A DNA stretch of 64,000 bases from Chthoniobacteraceae bacterium (lineage in GTDB: Bacteria; Verrucomicrobiota; Verrucomicrobiia; Chthoniobacterales; Chthoniobacteraceae): positions 1-64,000 of the forward strand of contig JBBCKI010000048.1 of assembly GCA_037190965.1 (NCBI GenBank), read 5' to 3'. Shown here piece by piece: positions 921 to 59,985 of this stretch (positions are counted from its first letter, which is position 1; every line of letters begins with the position of its first letter). Below the pieces are notes generated by a model. That model ran no database searches. It saw nothing but the letters and a program-made list of their open reading frames with translations, and had not been told where the DNA came from. Position numbers and translations under genes: made by a program.

Positions 921-1511
921 TCAGACACGCCGCTGCTTCGGAGGACGGCAACCGTTATGAGGAACCGGGGTAACGTCACGAATCACCGTGATGTCGAGTC
1001 CCATGGCCTGCATGGCGCGGACAGCCGACTCGCGTCCGGCCCCAGGGCCTTTCACGCGGACTTCCACTTCCTTGAGGCCGTGCCCCATTGCCTGGCGGCA
1101 AGCGTCCTGCGCGACCATCTGGGCGGCATAAGCGGTGCTCTTACGGGAACCACGGAACCCGGCCTTGCCTGCGCTCGACCAACCGATGACGGCACCCGTG
1201 AGGTCGGTGATGCTGACGATCGTGTTGTTGAAGCTGGCTTGAACGTGCGCAACGCCCGTGTGGACGTTCTTGGCACCCTTGGCCTTGATAATCTTGACCG
1301 GCTCGATGACGTTCTGGTCCAGAGAGAGGTTTTCCTCTTTCTTCGGCTCGGCGGCAGCGGCTGCGGCTGCGGCTTTCTTCTTGGGCGCAGCCTTTTTCTT
1401 GGCGGGCGCGGCGGTGGCTCCCTCAGCGGCGGCTGCGGCTGGAGCCGCTGCTTCTGCAACAGGAGCGGCCGGGGTTTCCGGCGTCTCGGGTGCGTTCGTT
1501 TCTTCTGCCAT
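921..1511 (-). CDS. rpsK: 30S ribosomal protein S11 with long Ala/Pro/Glu/Lys-rich N-terminal extension
   Basis: [38 protein letters not shown]. Confidence 0.97.
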
Positions 1512-56087: not shown

Positions 56088-58151
56088 ATGAAAAGGAAGG
56101 CCAACAAAACGGATCGATGGAAACTACAGATGGGCGCGCAAGCAGTACGCCCCCCGCGAAGCACAAACTGGTTTAAGATGCTTCCGACTATCATCTTAAA
56201 CATTGCCGCTGCTTCATCGGCAATGGCGTCTGCTTGGACAGGTGAAGGCACAAACAGCTATTTCGACAATCCCGTCAACTGGAGCAGCGGCGTCCTGCCT
56301 TCAAGCAATGGTGCTAGCGCGGTGTTTGATCGGCTCGCGAGTGTGGAATTCCGAGCATCCGGCGGAGCCTCCTCCCTTTTCATAGGCCAGTCCACGAGTT
56401 TTCTTCTCCAGGGGCGGACATTTTCGACCTCCTCTACCTATATTAATCAGAAAGCATTTTTTACCATAGATGGCGGAATGGCCTCTCTGGGTGACGTCAG
56501 CCTATCCGGCGGAATTACGGCAAAAGGCGCCGGAACGATCGTGTCCGCAGGTTCCATCCAAGGTGAAGGCTCCGGCGTAAGTATCTTGCAATTCAGCAAT
56601 GGCGCTATTTTAAGCGCCGATTCTGTTTCCGGCGTAAAGTCCATCCAGTTTCTCTCCGGTGCCGTGGGCGACGTGGGAGGCCTTGGGCTTATGCAGGGGC
56701 AATCCCTGGTGGTAAGCGGGGCAGGAACAAGCCTTGGCGTTTCTTCTCTCTCCAACAATGGAGGCCAAGTTTCGCTTAGCGCCGGAGCGCAACTGAACTC
56801 GACTGGATACAACGCAATTGGAAACCTCTCGGTTTCCGGAGCTGGAAGCCAATTTATCGGCGAATGGTTGACCGATGCCAGATCGGTCTCCATTAGTGAT
56901 GGAGGCAGTCTTTCTGTCCTAGGTGTTGATTTCAGCTACGGTGGTCAACTTACTGTTTCCGGTCCGGGCAGCAGCCTTTCGAGCCGTCACCTTACCGGTT
57001 CGGTGGACATTAACATTTCCAATGGAGGCTCCATCACGGCAGTAGAAACTCAAAATCTGGGCAGCCTTTCGATTTCGGGTGGAAGTTCAAGCTACAAGAG
57101 TTCCAGTACAACCAGAATCAAGGATGTATTTTCCCTCCGTGATGGCGCCAGCATGTCGGTTCAGCAGTTAAATCTTTCGGGCGCCTCTTCCATCCAGAAT
57201 GCTGTTCTGATCGCCAATCAAATTGATAACTCAGGTGCCCTGGAGATCCGGGAAAGCAGCATCGCTCCTCGCGACAAGGGCGGCGCATTCACCAACTCCG
57301 GTTCCCTAACCGGAGATTTCGCCTCCGAATACCAGTTGAACAATTTCGGTCACGTATCCATCGAACGCGAGGATTCGATGGTGTTTCGAAGAGGCGGAAA
57401 CTATTCCATCGGCTATATCAACGTACGCGGTTCGATGGAGTTCCTTGAATATTTCACCAATGACGGCACGATTGTGCTTTCCGGGTCGCTCCGGGCCAAT
57501 GACTTGCTTACCAACCAGCGCACGATTGAAGTCAGCGGTACGGCCAGTATTGGGGGTGGAGATTTCTACAACAACACGTCGGGTTCGGTCGCCGTACTCG
57601 GGCAGTCCAGGGTGAATTTCCTGGATGACGTCGTGAACGATGGCACGATCGCAATCGCCCTTGATTCAACGGCCGTTTTCCATGGGAGTTATTCCGGCAA
57701 CGGTTCGATTACCGGTACGGGAACTTCGGTTTTGCTCGGCGATCTCCGCCCCGGCCATAGCCCCGGCAGTCAAACCTTCGAAGGCGATGTCGTTTTTGGA
57801 GATGATTTCAGCTACACCGTCGAAATTGGCGGGCTTACTCAGGGAAGCGAGTATGACGTCATCCACGTTGGCGGTCTTCTCACTCTGGATGGAACCCTCT
57901 CCATTTCGCTATTGAACGGCGTTTCCTTGAAACAAGGAGATACTTTCGAGATTCTAACCTTCGGAGCGATTGAGGGAGAGTTCGCCGCGTTTCAGGGCCT
58001 TACGTTTGAGGGCCTCTCTTTCGAAACCATCTGGGGCGCGAATAATTTGACGCTTATGGTGATTCCCGAGCCGAACGCGGCGACCCTGCTGCTCCCTGGC
58101 TTGGCTGGCGTCATCGCCTTCGGCTGGCGTCGTCGCTGGAAGCAATCTTAG
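56088..58151 (+). CDS. PEP-CTERM sorted Gly/Ser-rich surface protein (start uncertain; alternative 56178)
   Basis: Signal-like IILNIAAASSAMA, WTG..NW motif, LRPGHSPG, C-terminal VIPEPNAATLLLPGLAGVIAFGWRRR. Confidence 0.87.
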   Translation: MKRKANKTDRWKLQMGAQAVRPPRSTNWFKMLPTIILNIAAASSAMASAWTGEGTNSYFDNPVNWSSGVLPSSNGASAVFDRLASVEFRASGGASSLFIGQSTSFLLQGRTFSTSSTYINQKAFFTIDGGMASLGDVSLSGGITAKGAGTIVSAGSIQGEGSGVSILQFSNGAILSADSVSGVKSIQFLSGAVGDVGGLGLMQGQSLVVSGAGTSLGVSSLSNNGGQVSLSAGAQLNSTGYNAIGNLSVSGAGSQFIGEWLTDARSVSISDGGSLSVLGVDFSYGGQLTVSGPGSSLSSRHLTGSVDINISNGGSITAVETQNLGSLSISGGSSSYKSSSTTRIKDVFSLRDGASMSVQQLNLSGASSIQNAVLIANQIDNSGALEIRESSIAPRDKGGAFTNSGSLTGDFASEYQLNNFGHVSIEREDSMVFRRGGNYSIGYINVRGSMEFLEYFTNDGTIVLSGSLRANDLLTNQRTIEVSGTASIGGGDFYNNTSGSVAVLGQSRVNFLDDVVNDGTIAIALDSTAVFHGSYSGNGSITGTGTSVLLGDLRPGHSPGSQTFEGDVVFGDDFSYTVEIGGLTQGSEYDVIHVGGLLTLDGTLSISLLNGVSLKQGDTFEILTFGAIEGEFAAFQGLTFEGLSFETIWGANNLTLMVIPEPNAATLLLPGLAGVIAFGWRRRWKQS

Positions 58152-58189
58152 GGCAGAATCGAGTTCGCACGCAAGCGGGGTAGACTCTT

Positions 58190-58544
58190 CGGGCGTCGAC
58201 CCGATTGAACACACGTCCGGGCAAAGCCGGTGTTCCGTTCCATGCTGGAACGGGAAGAATCGGCGGTTTCCGGTCTTTACTCCAAACGCTTGTACCGGTA
58301 ATGTTTGGGTGTTCGGCAATAGTCGAATCGGGGTGTAAGAGCCCCGCCAAAGCGGTTCGGTATTGACCGGAACAATGCCGTCTTCTCGTCCTCAAAAAGG
58401 TCGGGGAGACGGCGACGCATGTCCAGGCTGTGGCCTCGCGCCACGGCTAAAGGTCGTCGTGGCTGTCTTTGGCGGTCTCTTAACTCCCCGACCACCTTGA
58501 GAAATCAAGGTGGTCGCTTTGTTAACCGCCCAGACGGACCGACC
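58190..58544 (+). ncRNA. Candidate large structured RNA of unknown class
   Basis: About nine helices tile the region, with G-U pairs on the + strand, a 12-bp GAAA-capped hairpin (58489-58516) and a TAGACT -10-like box at 58181-58186. Confidence 0.6.
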
Positions 58545-59219
58545 ATGAATGACGATCCCTTTATTCCCACCTCCGAAACCGTGACAGTTGCGCAGGGCTG
58601 TCAGGAAGAGATGCCCCTTGAAGCATTGTTCAGGATTTCGACCTGCTACGCGGGTATTGGCTCCAGAAACACCCCGCGTCCAGTCCTGATCCTTATGGGC
58701 GAGATTGCCATGATGCTGGCCGACTACGGCTTGATTCTTCGGAGCGGAGGAGCCCCCGGAGCAGACACCGCCTTTGAAAATGGGTGCGATCGGAGGGGCA
58801 GAAAGAAGGAAATCTTCCTTCCGTGGAAAAGGTTCAATAATCACCCGTCCCCTTTCTTCGATCCTCCTGAAGACGCCCGGATACTCGCCTCCTTTTGCCA
58901 TCCAAACTGGACGGCTTGCGGATCTACCGCTCGTAAGCTTCACGCCAGAAATTGCCAACAGGTGGTTGGTCTTCATCTGAACGACCCGGTGGATTTCGTC
59001 CTCTTGTGGGCTCCCGAAGAGAGCGGCCGGGTTAAAGGAGGCACGGCCACCGCCGTGAACCTCGCCCGACGAATGAAGATTCCGACCTTCAATTTGTGGG
59101 ATGAATCCACCTATGAACGGTGGAAGGAAATGATAGCCACCCATCAGAGACGCCAGGAACTCCTCTGGCGCCGCATTCTTTCGTGGTTGGGAAATAGGGA
59201 AGGCGAGGACCATGACTGA
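58545..59219 (+). CDS. Stand-alone DprA/Smf-like SLOG-fold protein (alternative start 58611)
   Basis: YAGIGSRNTP, LRSGGAPGADTAFE, IFLPW, LHARN, KGGTATA, IPTFNL. Confidence 0.8.
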   Translation: MNDDPFIPTSETVTVAQGCQEEMPLEALFRISTCYAGIGSRNTPRPVLILMGEIAMMLADYGLILRSGGAPGADTAFENGCDRRGRKKEIFLPWKRFNNHPSPFFDPPEDARILASFCHPNWTACGSTARKLHARNCQQVVGLHLNDPVDFVLLWAPEESGRVKGGTATAVNLARRMKIPTFNLWDESTYERWKEMIATHQRRQELLWRRILSWLGNREGEDHD

Positions 59220-59461
59220 TCCCTCACTCAAGCAGCATGGATCATGTCCTTGATCTCCGTTTAAAATACTGGTGTCCGAGTCCTCATTTTTTGGCGAACA
59301 CCAAGAATCAGGCACCGGCAATTGAACCAAAAGGTACTGAGATCGCCGCAAGATCGGCAAGATTGCCTGAAAGGGAGATATTGAACTCCGAAGTTCACTC
59401 AATTGTTGAATGGACTCGACCCCTCTCCAATACTCTGGGAACCCATCTCGCCTAAGGCACA

Positions 59462-59779
59462 ATGAAAGAATCTGATTAGAAGATTTTCAGCCGGGAGCTT
59501 TATCCGTCCGCGCGCACCCGGTATTCGCAAAAGACGCTTGATGATCTGGCAGCGCTCTCTGCGAATAGCGAAAAGGATCCTCACGAAAGATATCTCGATA
59601 TTTCCGAGCTAATCCGAAAGAGAAATAAGGAAATCGCCCAGATATTCGCCAGTCTCTCACGTTCGAGTGCCTTTTTGGGGTTTCAAATTTACTCCCGAAA
59701 CCTGATCACCGAAAATCAGTTGATGAAACTATCCCCGGAAACCCGCGCCAGTCTGCATTCACAAATTGAGAAAAGGTGA
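59462..59779 (+). pseudogene. Small helical hypothetical protein gene with in-frame TAG at codon 6
   Basis: MKESD*KIFSRELYP..HERYLDI..LSRSSA..LSPETR; otherwise open for 105 codons. Confidence 0.6.
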
Positions 59780-59800
59780 GCCTTCGGCTGCAAGGAGTGC

Positions 59801-59909
59801 GGCGTCGCGGAGCTCCGCCCTCCGTTGGGGGGTGTTGCCACATCGGAAGAACCTCTCGCCCTGCGCGCGCTTGCCGCGCGGGAGAGGGAGGGCGGAGTTC
59901 CACGACGCC
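59801..59909. repeat. REP doublet family C, copy 2
   Basis: GGCGTCGCGGAGCTCCGCCCTCC / GGAGGGCGGAGTTCCACGACGCC. Confidence 0.7.
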
Positions 59910-59985
59910 GCCTGTGGCCAAAGGCCCTTTACTTCTTCTTCTCAACCACTCGTGGTTGTGCCGCCTTTTCGAGGTTGAAAGGAAA

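Follow-up and report, generated by a model that had tools for sequence, protein, structure and literature searches.

Results

Organization of the locus

The window, by which we mean the whole 64,000-nt stretch of DNA analysed here, carries a DprA-like/SLOG gene that is preceded on the same strand by a structured leader RNA. The features of this region are listed below by position and strand.

58276-58304, + strand: putative promoter; TTTACT (58276-81), 17-nt spacer, TAATGT (58299-304)
58311-58523, + strand: conserved leader RNA comprising a 5' domain, an Xcc1-like three-way junction, a terminator and a T tract (alignments A1 and A4)
58311-58328, + strand: H1 hairpin, variable in sequence but kept as a hairpin among members
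58329-58346, + strand: H2 hairpin CGGGG/CCCCG, 86.9% of cells paired
58336-41, + strand: address b1, the H2 loop TAAGAG, pairing with 58477-82
58344-58352, + strand: address a1, the linker CCGCCAAAG, pairing with 58467-75 (P3 loop and P3 3' arm)
58358-65/58373-80, + strand: S2 helix CGGTATTG/CAATGCCG, whose 3' arm overlaps the tail
58377-88/58402-13, + strand: tail hairpin GCCGTCTTCTCG/CGGGGAGACGGC, whose 3' partner is the 5' strand of P1/P2
58399-58493, + strand: Xcc1-like three-way junction formed by P1, P2 and P3
58399-408/58484-93, + strand: P1, 90.3% of cells paired, with covariation
58409-16/58453-60, + strand: P2, 100% of cells paired, with covariation
58461-65/58473-77, + strand: P3, 98.1% of cells paired, with covariation
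58419-26 and 58448-52, + strand: near-invariant internal loop, ATGTCCAG and TAAAG
58427-47, + strand: variable hairpin within the junction
58489-58523, + strand: intrinsic terminator; 12-bp stem with GAAA loop (58489-58516), tail CTTTGTT
58545-59219, + strand: DprA-like/SLOG gene, 224 aa (phrog_768), the cargo of the window copy

Residues 33-203 of the SLOG protein match phrog_768 ('DprA-like DNA recombination-mediator protein') at E 2.2e-62, which identifies the protein as DprA-like/SLOG at the profile level, while Pfam PF02481 scores 13.6 bits against a cut-off of 29.6. Some relatives of the protein carry precomputed PF02481 and PF18306 labels, and matches to its paralogues start at residues 20-25. 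Base composition at the locus reveals no sharp island edge, and synteny of the locus was not found in four same-genus genomes. GC content dips to 0.48 at 59200-59800.

A compact leader RNA with a putative promoter

Folding energies were compared with those of shuffled sequences over 58181-58547. The + strand folds better than its shuffles (z -7.35, 0/100 as good) and the - strand does so more weakly (z -5.07), in keeping with the original prediction of a highly structured RNA read from the + strand. Inspection of the separate parts indicates that this signal is confined almost wholly to 58311-58525 (+), where z is -10.44 and 0/200 shuffles are equal, versus z -1.84 and 8/200 equally good shuffles for 58181-58310, a 5' part in which the copies are not alignable. 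The structured leader is judged to be real, with a modelled extent of ~215 nt (58311-58525, + strand), strongly folded and shorter than the ~355 nt (58181-58544) first proposed. Because the 5' part is unremarkable and unalignable, the elements originally drawn there, namely two upstream helices (58190-96/58213-19 and 58226-42/58246-64), a multiloop-closing helix (58268-75/58365-72) and a pseudoknot (58292-98/58357-63), are left without comparative support. The hairpins proposed at 58311-28, 58329-46, 58377-58413 and 58426-48, together with the perfect 12-bp GAAA-capped hairpin at 58489-58516, are genuine and recur among relatives. H1 was judged by eye in each sequence, since the column alignment there is poor. 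Non-Watson-Crick pairs are G-U on the + strand family-wide, as had been noted for the single sequence; two pairs, for example, are GU in 22/32 rows. The last stem had been drawn as reaching the ATG; the hairpin in fact stops at 58516 and is followed by a T-rich tract to 58523, with the ATG at 58545.

The -10-like box TAGACT suggested at 58181 is not borne out, as a strict consensus scan returns 0 promoter-like sites there. The same scan does not pass the site at 58276-58304, which has TTT in place of TTG, and this TTTACT/TAATGT element would be a weak promoter. It is more likely a promoter than an RNA helix, and it would place the RNA 5' end near 58311. Among the family members, a TTG hexamer lies 47-58 nt upstream of H2 in 23/32, compared with a mean of 6.3 in control windows.

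The leader precedes diverse genes in several phyla

Eleven copies of the core occur in three of the five same-genus genomes tested. Model R1, built from the window family, scores 41-107 bits at 18/80 pattern-selected loci from other phyla, and the family is also matched by 7/62 loci on viral contigs and by 23/151 sampled Alphaproteobacteria (a tally that includes G042 and G382). Besides the genus of the window, its hosts are Alphaproteobacteria, Planctomycetota, Vampirovibrionales and viral contigs, and the RNA always lies just upstream of a gene, with the start codon 11-22 nt past the model end in most copies. A search with R1 of 150 other genomes of the window's phylum found nothing, its sensitivity being limited because only 22 first-look candidates per genome were scored, and blastn of one family member matched nothing in plasmid and phage collections at E 1e-3.

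The downstream genes vary, from SLOG in the window to the defence gene UzuA, nucleases, GYF membrane proteins and lipoproteins elsewhere. The other 10 genus copies precede a 73-aa helical protein, a GYF protein, a secreted protein, or short or broken reading frames, and all 18 copies from other phyla stand before non-SLOG genes. A functionally coherent regulon was not found among this cargo (SLOG, UzuA, GIY-YIG, Mrr-like, GYF_2, pilin-like, lipoproteins). Such unrelated functions among downstream genes are unusual for a metabolite riboswitch.

This distribution largely refutes the proposal that the leader at 58311-58523 and the SLOG/DprA-like protein make up a dedicated ncRNA-protein module, with the protein binding or using the RNA, a reading that we now consider highly improbable. 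In addition to the non-SLOG cargo of the 10 genus copies and the 18 copies from other phyla, this leader is missing from the other SLOG-paralogue loci, with 0/11 having an R1 match at the upstream site and none showing blastn similarity. The module would fit the closest orthologue, L270 (87% identical protein), in which the terminator 3' arm and the T tract are retained ahead of the start codon; this was the one close relative returned by a metagenome orthologue search, on a contig ending 37 nt upstream of the gene. It would also fit the strongly structured upstream regions at 7/12 SLOG loci in the genus, six of which have another conserved leader in common. That different structured leader (alignment A5) is carried by six to eight other SLOG paralogues. 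SLOG/DprA-like genes of the genus thus follow long structured leaders that fall into two unrelated kinds, a hint at tightly restrained expression.

The 3' half is a distant relative of sRNA-Xcc1

The leader had been called undescribed. This holds insofar as Rfam gives 0 matches at gathering score over the whole window, and it fails insofar as the 3' half is a sub-threshold, full-length and reciprocal match to sRNA-Xcc1 (RF02221). The RF02221 alignment at 58400-58500 spans model positions 1-87 of 87 with 26.6 bits (E 0.024), and the window's relatives score 26-38 bits. Reciprocally, R1 run with filters off matches 10/10 genuine Xcc1 loci at the Xcc1 site (12.4-35.9 bits, E 2.4e-7 to 0.22), where the weaker half of the matches would be insufficient taken alone. 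Sub-threshold matches to ctRNA_pGA1 (13.9 bits) and sR14 (12.7 bits) are at chance level and were rejected.

Both RNAs form a three-way junction of a closing helix and two hairpins, with P1, P2 and P3 90-100% paired and supported by compensatory changes. Both are multi-copy in accessory regions (for Xcc1, in the account of PMC12189769), and each is followed on its own strand by a small gene of accessory, toxin or antirepressor type. Xcc1 is described as adjoining the symE toxin gene on its upstream side (bioRxiv 10.1101/2025.06.18.660453), and downstream of the genuine Xcc1 loci sampled here we found SymE_toxin twice, P22_AR_N and KilA-N. Genuine Xcc1 loci resemble the window family in further respects: a hairpin lies upstream, the linker is complementary to the P3 loop, the tail pairs with the P1 5' strand, and a small hairpin resembles a terminator; the Rfam Xcc1 model describes the 3' half of this unit only.

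The differences are equally apparent. The RF02221 score is half of the gathering threshold (26.6 versus 53 bits), and the internal loop is AUGUCCAG/UAAAG in the window family as opposed to AAUACAA/GAAAUA-like in Xcc1. Hosts of Xcc1 are Gamma- and Betaproteobacteria, whereas those of the window family are Verrucomicrobiota, Alphaproteobacteria and others. Most members of the window family, the window included, do not have the address copies near the Shine-Dalgarno sequence that we read in genuine Xcc1, a feature of our own reading and not a published criterion. The family is a broad, uncatalogued, distant and longer relative of sRNA-Xcc1, and it is not specific to SLOG.

Settings described for Xcc1 are Xanthomonas campestris, integron cassettes, islands and prophages. 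An integron attC site was considered because Xcc1 occurs in cassettes, and was dropped by judgement, the element being a branched fold with promoter and terminator and not an imperfect palindrome. A comparison of the 73-aa protein behind two copies in genome G000 with a small protein behind one genuine Xcc1 gave E 0.066, a value that does not show a relation between them.

The c4 antisense RNA of phages P1 and P7 (RF01695) offers a second comparison, as it too is a leader-encoded three-helix RNA with two variable segments complementary to upstream sites on its own transcript, and in some window relatives complements are also found at the ribosome-binding site of the downstream gene. As outlined in PMC5320573 and PMC8198154, the c4 system has a1b1 and a2b2 sites; an antirepressor or harmful gene is often the cargo on both sides of the comparison. 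The window, in contrast, has no clear a2/b2 target, and the apparent output of its family is an intrinsic terminator overlapping P1. RF01695 gives no match at E up to 10 in 58050-58700, and the papers found in a search for a published link between Xcc1 and c4/isrK do no more than name these RNAs alongside one another. By published layout only, the leader may also be likened to the Bartonella RNAs Brt1-9, which are described as ~200 nt and multi-copy, each forming a separate transcript that stops just short of a barely transcribed downstream gene (PMC5387305), and which Tu et al. (2016, PMC5387305) propose to act both as sRNAs in trans and in the manner of riboswitch leaders. In that account the Brt cargo is an XRE-type regulator (trp genes), as against a SLOG protein in the window; in a 1.8-Mb alphaproteobacterial genome with 6 copies of our family, the cargo consists of small basic proteins that are not obvious XRE regulators.

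Covariation supports two competing folds

Helices were scored across 32 family members. The tail hairpin excludes the three-way junction because it takes 58402-13, the P1/P2 5' strand, and the pairings group into a Fold I with the junction and a Fold II with the tail hairpin. Fold I pairs 91.5% of cells versus 78.4% in shuffles (slid controls 32-51%) and Fold II 89.4% versus 77.6%, percentages that are inflated because the structures derive from the same sequences as the alignment (A4, MAFFT), and that come from 32 rows which include kin and are not independent. In Fold I, 32/42 pairs are changed on both sides, and 0/500 shuffles are as high. For Fold II, 0/500 shuffles are as high in cells paired, both-side-changed cells or covariation score, and 2/500 and 1/500 are as high in the pair-counting and pair-type-counting measures, respectively. 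Among single helices, S2 is 85.8% paired with both-side changes at 7/8 pairs, and the tail hairpin (58377-58413) is 92.2% paired with such changes at 6/12 pairs.

Two long-range contacts link the 5' domain to the junction. The loop-junction helix 58336-41/58477-82 is 88% paired, with both-side changes at 5/6 pairs, and linker-P3 complementarity averages 8.36 for cognate versus 4.38 for non-cognate combinations, exceeding the non-cognate 95th percentile in 31/32 members. The address sequences are unlike in every copy. Covariation thus supports two predicted, mutually exclusive folds together with two putative long-range pairings.

Nearest-neighbour energies favour Fold II. The minimum-energy fold of the window sequence is Fold II with the tail hairpin and the full terminator (-116 kcal/mol); enforced Fold I reaches -98.3 kcal/mol with its two pseudoknots not counted, a difference of about 17 kcal/mol.

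The terminator hairpin with its T-rich tail is present in 29/32 members and shares at least 3 nt with the P1 3' strand in 25/32 (median overlap 5 nt). In the window, the first 5 nt of the terminator are the P1 3' end. The leader thereby has the general make-up of an attenuator, a conserved sensor domain together with an intrinsic terminator in competition with the sensor helix P1. Fold I might not block termination, since P1 sequesters 5/12 terminator stem pairs and the window's T tract is poor (CTTTGTT). In the folds of L108, L063, L082 and L084, the P1 3' strand CUCCC can pair with a GGGAG Shine-Dalgarno sequence.

Possible alternative uses of the junction and the addresses

Inspection of the junction reveals that its unpaired nucleotides are nearly invariant across phyla and its helices variable. 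Such a pattern would suit a ligand-sensing riboswitch. Its pocket, built from the internal loop AUGUCCAG/UAAAG together with the junction, would take up a small molecule or second messenger and thereby stabilise Fold I, and the two exclusive folds with a terminator platform would serve it well. Second-messenger riboswitches also precede heterogeneous genes. We nevertheless regard this reading as quite unlikely, as no common thread of metabolism or transport runs through the cargo, the family is patchily distributed and associated with mobile elements, and the closest relatives, Xcc1 and c4, are known or thought to act by RNA-RNA pairing.

The same loop contains a conserved AUG (58419) that opens a 6-codon frame, MS[RK]xxx-stop, so that translation of a leader peptide might pick the fold. 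The exact frame, ending at a conserved TAA, is found in 21/31 members with ATGTCCA, and GGGAGG stands 9-10 nt upstream of the AUG. The frame is, however, lost or lengthened in the other 10/31, among them the window, where it stays open and joins the SLOG ORF in frame. Its variable codons change as hairpin base pairs and not at synonymous sites, the Shine-Dalgarno-like sequence is paired in both folds, and two members have an insertion between that sequence and the AUG. Peptide-driven attenuation is accordingly given very little weight.

Addresses that differ between all copies could also belong to a stand-alone trans-acting sRNA, released at its own terminator and acting antisense through its P3-loop and junction addresses, with the downstream gene incidental or one target among others. 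The order of upstream copies of both addresses followed by a three-helix RNA with their complements is c4-like (as c4 is laid out in PMC5320573). Genuine Xcc1 loci have further copies of both addresses next to the Shine-Dalgarno sequence, in at least 12/17 rows by eye (cognate mean 7.41 versus 5.76), and a start-region copy is present in a minority of the window family (L047, L097, L196, L202, L230 and L248). A third, start-codon-proximal copy is not general in that family, however: the mean is 6.66 versus 5.98, 4/37 exceed the non-cognate 95th percentile, and the test is not significant. The best downstream match in the window, the 6-bp ACCGCC/GGCGGT, is within background. The tight, constant spacing to the start codon and the terminator/P1 overlap point instead to cis coupling, and we hold the trans-acting reading to be rather unlikely, while noting that it can coexist with a cis role.

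Discussion

We propose, at a probability of roughly 0.55, that the leader is a cis-acting two-state attenuator of an Xcc1/c4-like superfamily that gates the next gene. This proposal starts from a demonstrated RNA family in which both helix sets covary, the terminator overlaps P1 and the position before diverse genes is fixed. The original prediction had allowed for a complex cis-regulatory leader, and that part of it gains support from the conserved structure, the terminator that overlaps a helix strand, and the fixed short distance to the start codon.

Under the two-state attenuator, the ~215-nt leader (58311-58523) would probably be made from its own weak promoter at 58276-58304. In Fold II, the tail (58377-88) would pair with the P1/P2 5' strand, while the H2 loop and linker would be engaged in pairing with P3 (its loop and 3' arm) and with the junction. 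The freed P1 3' strand would then complete the 12-bp terminator (58489-58516), and transcription would stop 20-30 nt upstream of the SLOG start codon. In Fold I, the Xcc1-like junction P1-P2-P3 would form with S2 holding the start of the tail, and the 5' domain would dock through pairings a (58344-52/58467-75) and b (58336-41/58477-82). P1 would hold 5 nt of the terminator 5' arm, such that read-through would be favoured. A ligand, a protein, an antisense partner or folding kinetics are candidate triggers of the switch. Transcription of the leader, the direction of the switch and regulation of the gene are inferred. A purely cis role is not established, since Xcc1 and Brt1 are reported as trans-acting sRNAs.

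The work adds Verrucomicrobiota, Alphaproteobacteria, Planctomycetota and predicted viral contigs to the range of the family, and Xcc1, catalogued but poorly understood, is recast as the half so far seen of a larger leader whose mechanism can be tested. Rfam thresholds miss the family, and a new model could capture it. A broader and doubtful extension is that leaders of the Xcc1/Brt type serve as portable RNA locks on cargo that is harmful or only conditionally useful, which would include defence nucleases such as UzuA, SymE toxins, antirepressors, SLOG proteins and surface proteins. If true, every cassette would come with its own promoter, a terminator and a bistable RNA whose address helices are specific to the copy, and its cargo would stay silent until the fold is flipped by a signal such as phage infection or a cognate antisense partner. 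Distinct addresses would allow independent control of several cassettes per cell, and several phyla would then share a widespread RNA-based counterpart to type I toxin-antitoxin and c4-ant control. Given that defence genes, toxins and antirepressors are found behind such leaders, the leaders may be a general silence-and-release device for mobile cargo and, if so, would represent a ready-made set of orthogonal RNA switches.

A leader RNA of ~215 nt precedes the SLOG gene

Comparison with dinucleotide shuffles bears out the strong folding that the original prediction had placed across 58181-58544, where the span 58181-58547 yields z scores of -7.35 on the + strand and -5.07 on the - strand. The extent first proposed is nevertheless too long. 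That is to say, 58311-58525 gives z -10.44, with 0/200 shuffles as good, versus z -1.84 for 58181-58310, where 8/200 shuffles are as good, which shows the location of the folding signal. Common to the copies of the RNA is a stretch of ~215 nt running from the hairpin at 58311 through the T tract at 58523, and sequence 5' of 58311 is unrelated from copy to copy. The predicted feature thus stands as a real, shorter leader RNA with two modeled folds, the observation being confirmed in part and its interpretation supported in part. A strong local hairpin also lies at 58226-58264 (10-bp stem TTCCGTTCCA/TGGAACGGGA, 58232-58254), ~80 nt past the PEP-CTERM stop codon. It carries no T run, is not kept in other copies, and may be a 3' structure of the PEP-CTERM gene.

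The region had at first been matched to no common class of known RNA, and inspection of Rfam at gathering score reveals no family across the 64-kb window. Under permissive filters, 58400-58500 (+) aligns to all 87 positions of sRNA-Xcc1 (RF02221), a full-length but sub-threshold match (26.6 bits; threshold 53).

Covariation supports two exclusive folds

Pairs of two named structures were counted on A4, a 32-member MAFFT alignment of the family, where Fold I is a three-way junction state and Fold II is a tail hairpin state with the full intrinsic terminator.

Helices of the leader RNA in the window
58329-33/58342-46, + strand: H2 (Fold I)
58358-65/58373-80, + strand: S2 (Fold I)
58399-408/58484-93, + strand: P1 of the three-way junction (Fold I)
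58409-16/58453-60, + strand: P2 of the three-way junction (Fold I)
58461-65/58473-77, + strand: P3 of the three-way junction (Fold I)
58336-41/58477-82, + strand: pseudoknot of the H2 loop with the junction (Folds I and II)
58377-88/58402-13, + strand: tail with the 5' strand of P1/P2 (Fold II)
58344-52/58467-75, + strand: inner part of the long-range helix, linker with the P3 loop and 3' arm (permutation test)

Fold I has paired bases in 91.5% of cells versus 78.4% in shuffles and 32-51% in slid controls, both sides change in 32 of the 42 pairs, and 0/500 shuffles reach any measure. Fold II, which also includes the outer part of the long-range helix, has 89.4% of cells paired versus 77.6% in shuffles; 0/500 shuffles match its paired cells, both-side-changed cells or covariation score, and 2/500 and 1/500 match the measures counting pairs and pair types, where for both folds the structures derive from the same sequences, the alignment is that of MAFFT and the related sequences are not independent. 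The inner part of the long-range helix varies too much to be aligned by MAFFT and was tested by permutation instead. Linker/P3 complementarity averages 8.36 for cognate versus 4.38 for non-cognate combinations, and 31/32 cognates exceed the non-cognate 95th percentile.

Because the tail hairpin is incompatible with P1/P2, and the extended long-range helix with P3 and H2, the leader RNA has two mutually exclusive, selected folds. Fold II (-115 kcal/mol) all but coincides with the window RNA's minimum-energy structure (-116 kcal/mol), and Fold I, when enforced, reaches -98.3 kcal/mol with the two pseudoknots left out.

Terminator, start codon and promoter

A terminator scan of 58100-58620 returned two terminator-like sites. 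One is a 12-bp hairpin (58489-58516) with CTTTGTT behind it, and the first five bases of the hairpin double as the final five of the P1 3' strand. A hairpin and T-rich tail occupy this place in 29/32 family members, and in 25/32 the terminator shares at least 3 nt (median 5) with the P1 3' strand. In most copies the next start codon falls 11-22 nt past the end of R1, a covariance model of the leader 3' domain. Several members have a GGGAG Shine-Dalgarno sequence with which, in their predicted folds, CUCCC of the P1 3' strand can also pair; the window has no clear Shine-Dalgarno sequence before the SLOG gene.

Upstream, 23/32 members have a TTG hexamer 47-58 nt 5' of H2, where control windows average 6.3 members and never exceed 10. 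A TAnnnT-like or GAACnT hexamer usually comes next, across a 17-nt spacer. The window candidate, TTTACT-N17-TAATGT at 58276-58304, is weak and fails a strict promoter scan, and for this reason we only infer that transcription of the leader RNA starts near 58311 from a promoter of its own. Read-through transcription from the PEP-CTERM gene ending at 58151 would be an alternative source of the RNA. Both transcription of the leader RNA and the direction of its switch are putative.

A near-invariant ATGTCCA...TAAAG (window 58419-58452; same A4 columns) delimits a mini-ORF of 6 codons (MS[RK]xxx-stop) in 21/31 members, with GGGAGG 9-10 nt 5' of the ATG. In the window this frame continues in frame into the SLOG ORF (58419..59219), and its translation is putative.

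The leader RNA precedes diverse genes

The gene at 58545-59219 encodes a DprA-like/SLOG protein (phrog_768, E 2.2e-62) with only a sub-threshold Pfam match to PF02481 and nothing found in NCBIfam or PDB sequences. Its relatives at E <= 1e-10 number 1834, some labelled PF02481 or PF18306. SLOG paralogues occur as 3-5 matches per genome in 5/6 genomes of the genus, the window's own counted, and are absent from the 35 genomes of 34 other genera searched. One close orthologue in metagenomes is 87% identical and retains the terminator 3' arm and T tract, where its contig ends. The ~770 bases 3' of the SLOG gene (59220-59985) are lower in G+C (0.48) and hold no more than short ORFs, followed by a convergent TPR gene.

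Part of the leader region recurs on another contig of the window's genome, before a 73-aa ORF and with compensatory changes in a helix. RF02221 gives 11 full-length matches, all sub-threshold, over five same-genus genomes; R1 recovers the same 11 places, in 3/5 of these genomes, and no others, these 11 being its training set. Behind the same-genus copies lie SLOG (window only), a 73-aa helical protein, a GYF_2 membrane protein, a small secreted protein and short or broken reading frames. Neither blastn nor R1 with filters off found the leader RNA at 11 SLOG paralogue loci. With differing genes behind the copies and 0/11 paralogue loci carrying the RNA, the proposed coupling of RNA and SLOG protein is not borne out. 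One copy (L036/L027, G001:C108:30302-30429) has a 3' domain 91% identical to that of the window and a 5' domain that is not alignable, a pattern that suggests domain replacement or decay.

In the wider family, the genes behind the leader include UzuA, a defence gene (E 3.4e-93), as well as genes for GIY-YIG and Mrr-like nucleases, GYF_2 proteins, a pilin-like protein and lipoproteins. UzuA is the single-gene Uzume anti-phage defence; in an alphaproteobacterial MAG (L108:1303-2115), a family member stands directly before a full-length UzuA identified by PADLOC.

A second structured leader accompanies other SLOG paralogues

Among the other SLOG paralogues in the genus, six to eight stand behind a conserved leader of another type, a long irregular hairpin of ~120 nt and then a GC hairpin with a T run, unrelated to the 58311-58523 RNA.

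Matches of the second leader
G000:C48:139248-139343: on the window's contig, beyond the window
L004:1270-1476: collected locus
L009:2125-2332, - strand: collected locus
L005:2089-2296, - strand: collected locus
L010 and L012:2023-2230, - strand: collected loci

Its genomic matches lie directly 5' of SLOG genes in 8/9 cases, 20/44 predicted pairs are compensatory among six sequences, and Rfam gives no match at E 0.1. On these sequence comparisons it may be the actual SLOG-associated RNA of the genus. Given its presence on six to eight paralogues, SLOG genes here tend to sit behind structured RNAs, only not behind the 58311-58523 RNA. Adjoining the SLOG paralogue at L009, in a same-genus genome, are two inverted Acido-Lenti-1 matches (1267-1311(-) and 1428-1473(+)), near-threshold at 34 bits versus a gathering score of 37.

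The family is centred in Alphaproteobacteria

A pattern built from the conserved internal loop, scanned with one genome per species, yielded at least 119 stretches, 80 of which were examined as loci. Eighteen of the 80 are true R1 matches at the pattern site (41-107 bits among the matches listed), one of them identical to a same-genus copy; a nineteenth match is weak and off-site. Going by record titles, these 18 belong to Alphaproteobacteria (Rhodospirillales, Sneathiella, Tistlia, Micavibrio, Rickettsiales), Verrucomicrobiota (Chthoniobacteraceae, Spartobacteria, Verrucomicrobium, Akkermansiaceae), Planctomycetota and Vampirovibrionales. The sole Rfam match is again RF02221, at 37-38 bits in 4 of the 18. 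Four of these loci led to genomes with 1-3 copies apiece, and on viral contigs 7/62 pattern loci are true R1 matches.

In even samples at E <= 1e-5, with 22 first-look candidates scored per genome, R1 matches 23/151 Alphaproteobacteria (a tally that includes the centre genome and G382) versus 0/150 other genomes of the window's phylum. Alphaproteobacteria are therefore the centre of the family, which occurs patchily outside them, a distribution that fits horizontal spread.

Relation to sRNA-Xcc1 and c4

Genuine Xcc1 was sampled in Gammaproteobacteria, where 9/151 genomes exceed the cut-off (tallies include G084 and G186, whose loci were left out). R1 matches 10/10 of the genuine Xcc1 loci given to it, at 12-36 bits. 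As in the leader family, the flanks of genuine Xcc1 contain an upstream hairpin, a linker that complements the P3 loop, a tail that pairs with the 5' strand of P1 and a small terminator-like hairpin, then a Shine-Dalgarno sequence and ATG. By eye, both addresses (the copy-specific pairing segments of H2 loop and linker) recur beside the Shine-Dalgarno sequence in at least 12/17 rows of genuine Xcc1; permutation gives 7.41 versus 5.76 with 4/17 over the 95th percentile, weaker than the by-eye reading. In contrast, a start-proximal address copy is not general in the leader family.

Phage c4 RNA, as outlined in passages of PMC5320573 and PMC8198154, comprises a1b1 sites, a'b' loops and an a2b2 target. 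Genuine Xcc1 loci (L173-L192) resemble this a1b1/a'b'/a2b2 layout, where the P3 loop and 3' junction are complementary to the upstream hairpin loop and linker, and a second complementary copy abuts the Shine-Dalgarno sequence of the next gene. Our literature search found no paper stating such a layout for sRNA-Xcc1 loci. Among the genes behind them in the sampled Gammaproteobacteria are two for SymE toxin, one for a P22-type antirepressor and one for a KilA-N protein; a preprint reports Xcc1 upstream of symE in Xanthomonas cassettes (bioRxiv 10.1101/2025.06.18.660453), and a separate paper reports that in APSE phages it precedes an ORF6N protein. Judged by sequence and predicted structure, the window RNA is a new and longer form of Xcc1-type RNA, a kind rarely met in this phylum and here standing before a SLOG gene.
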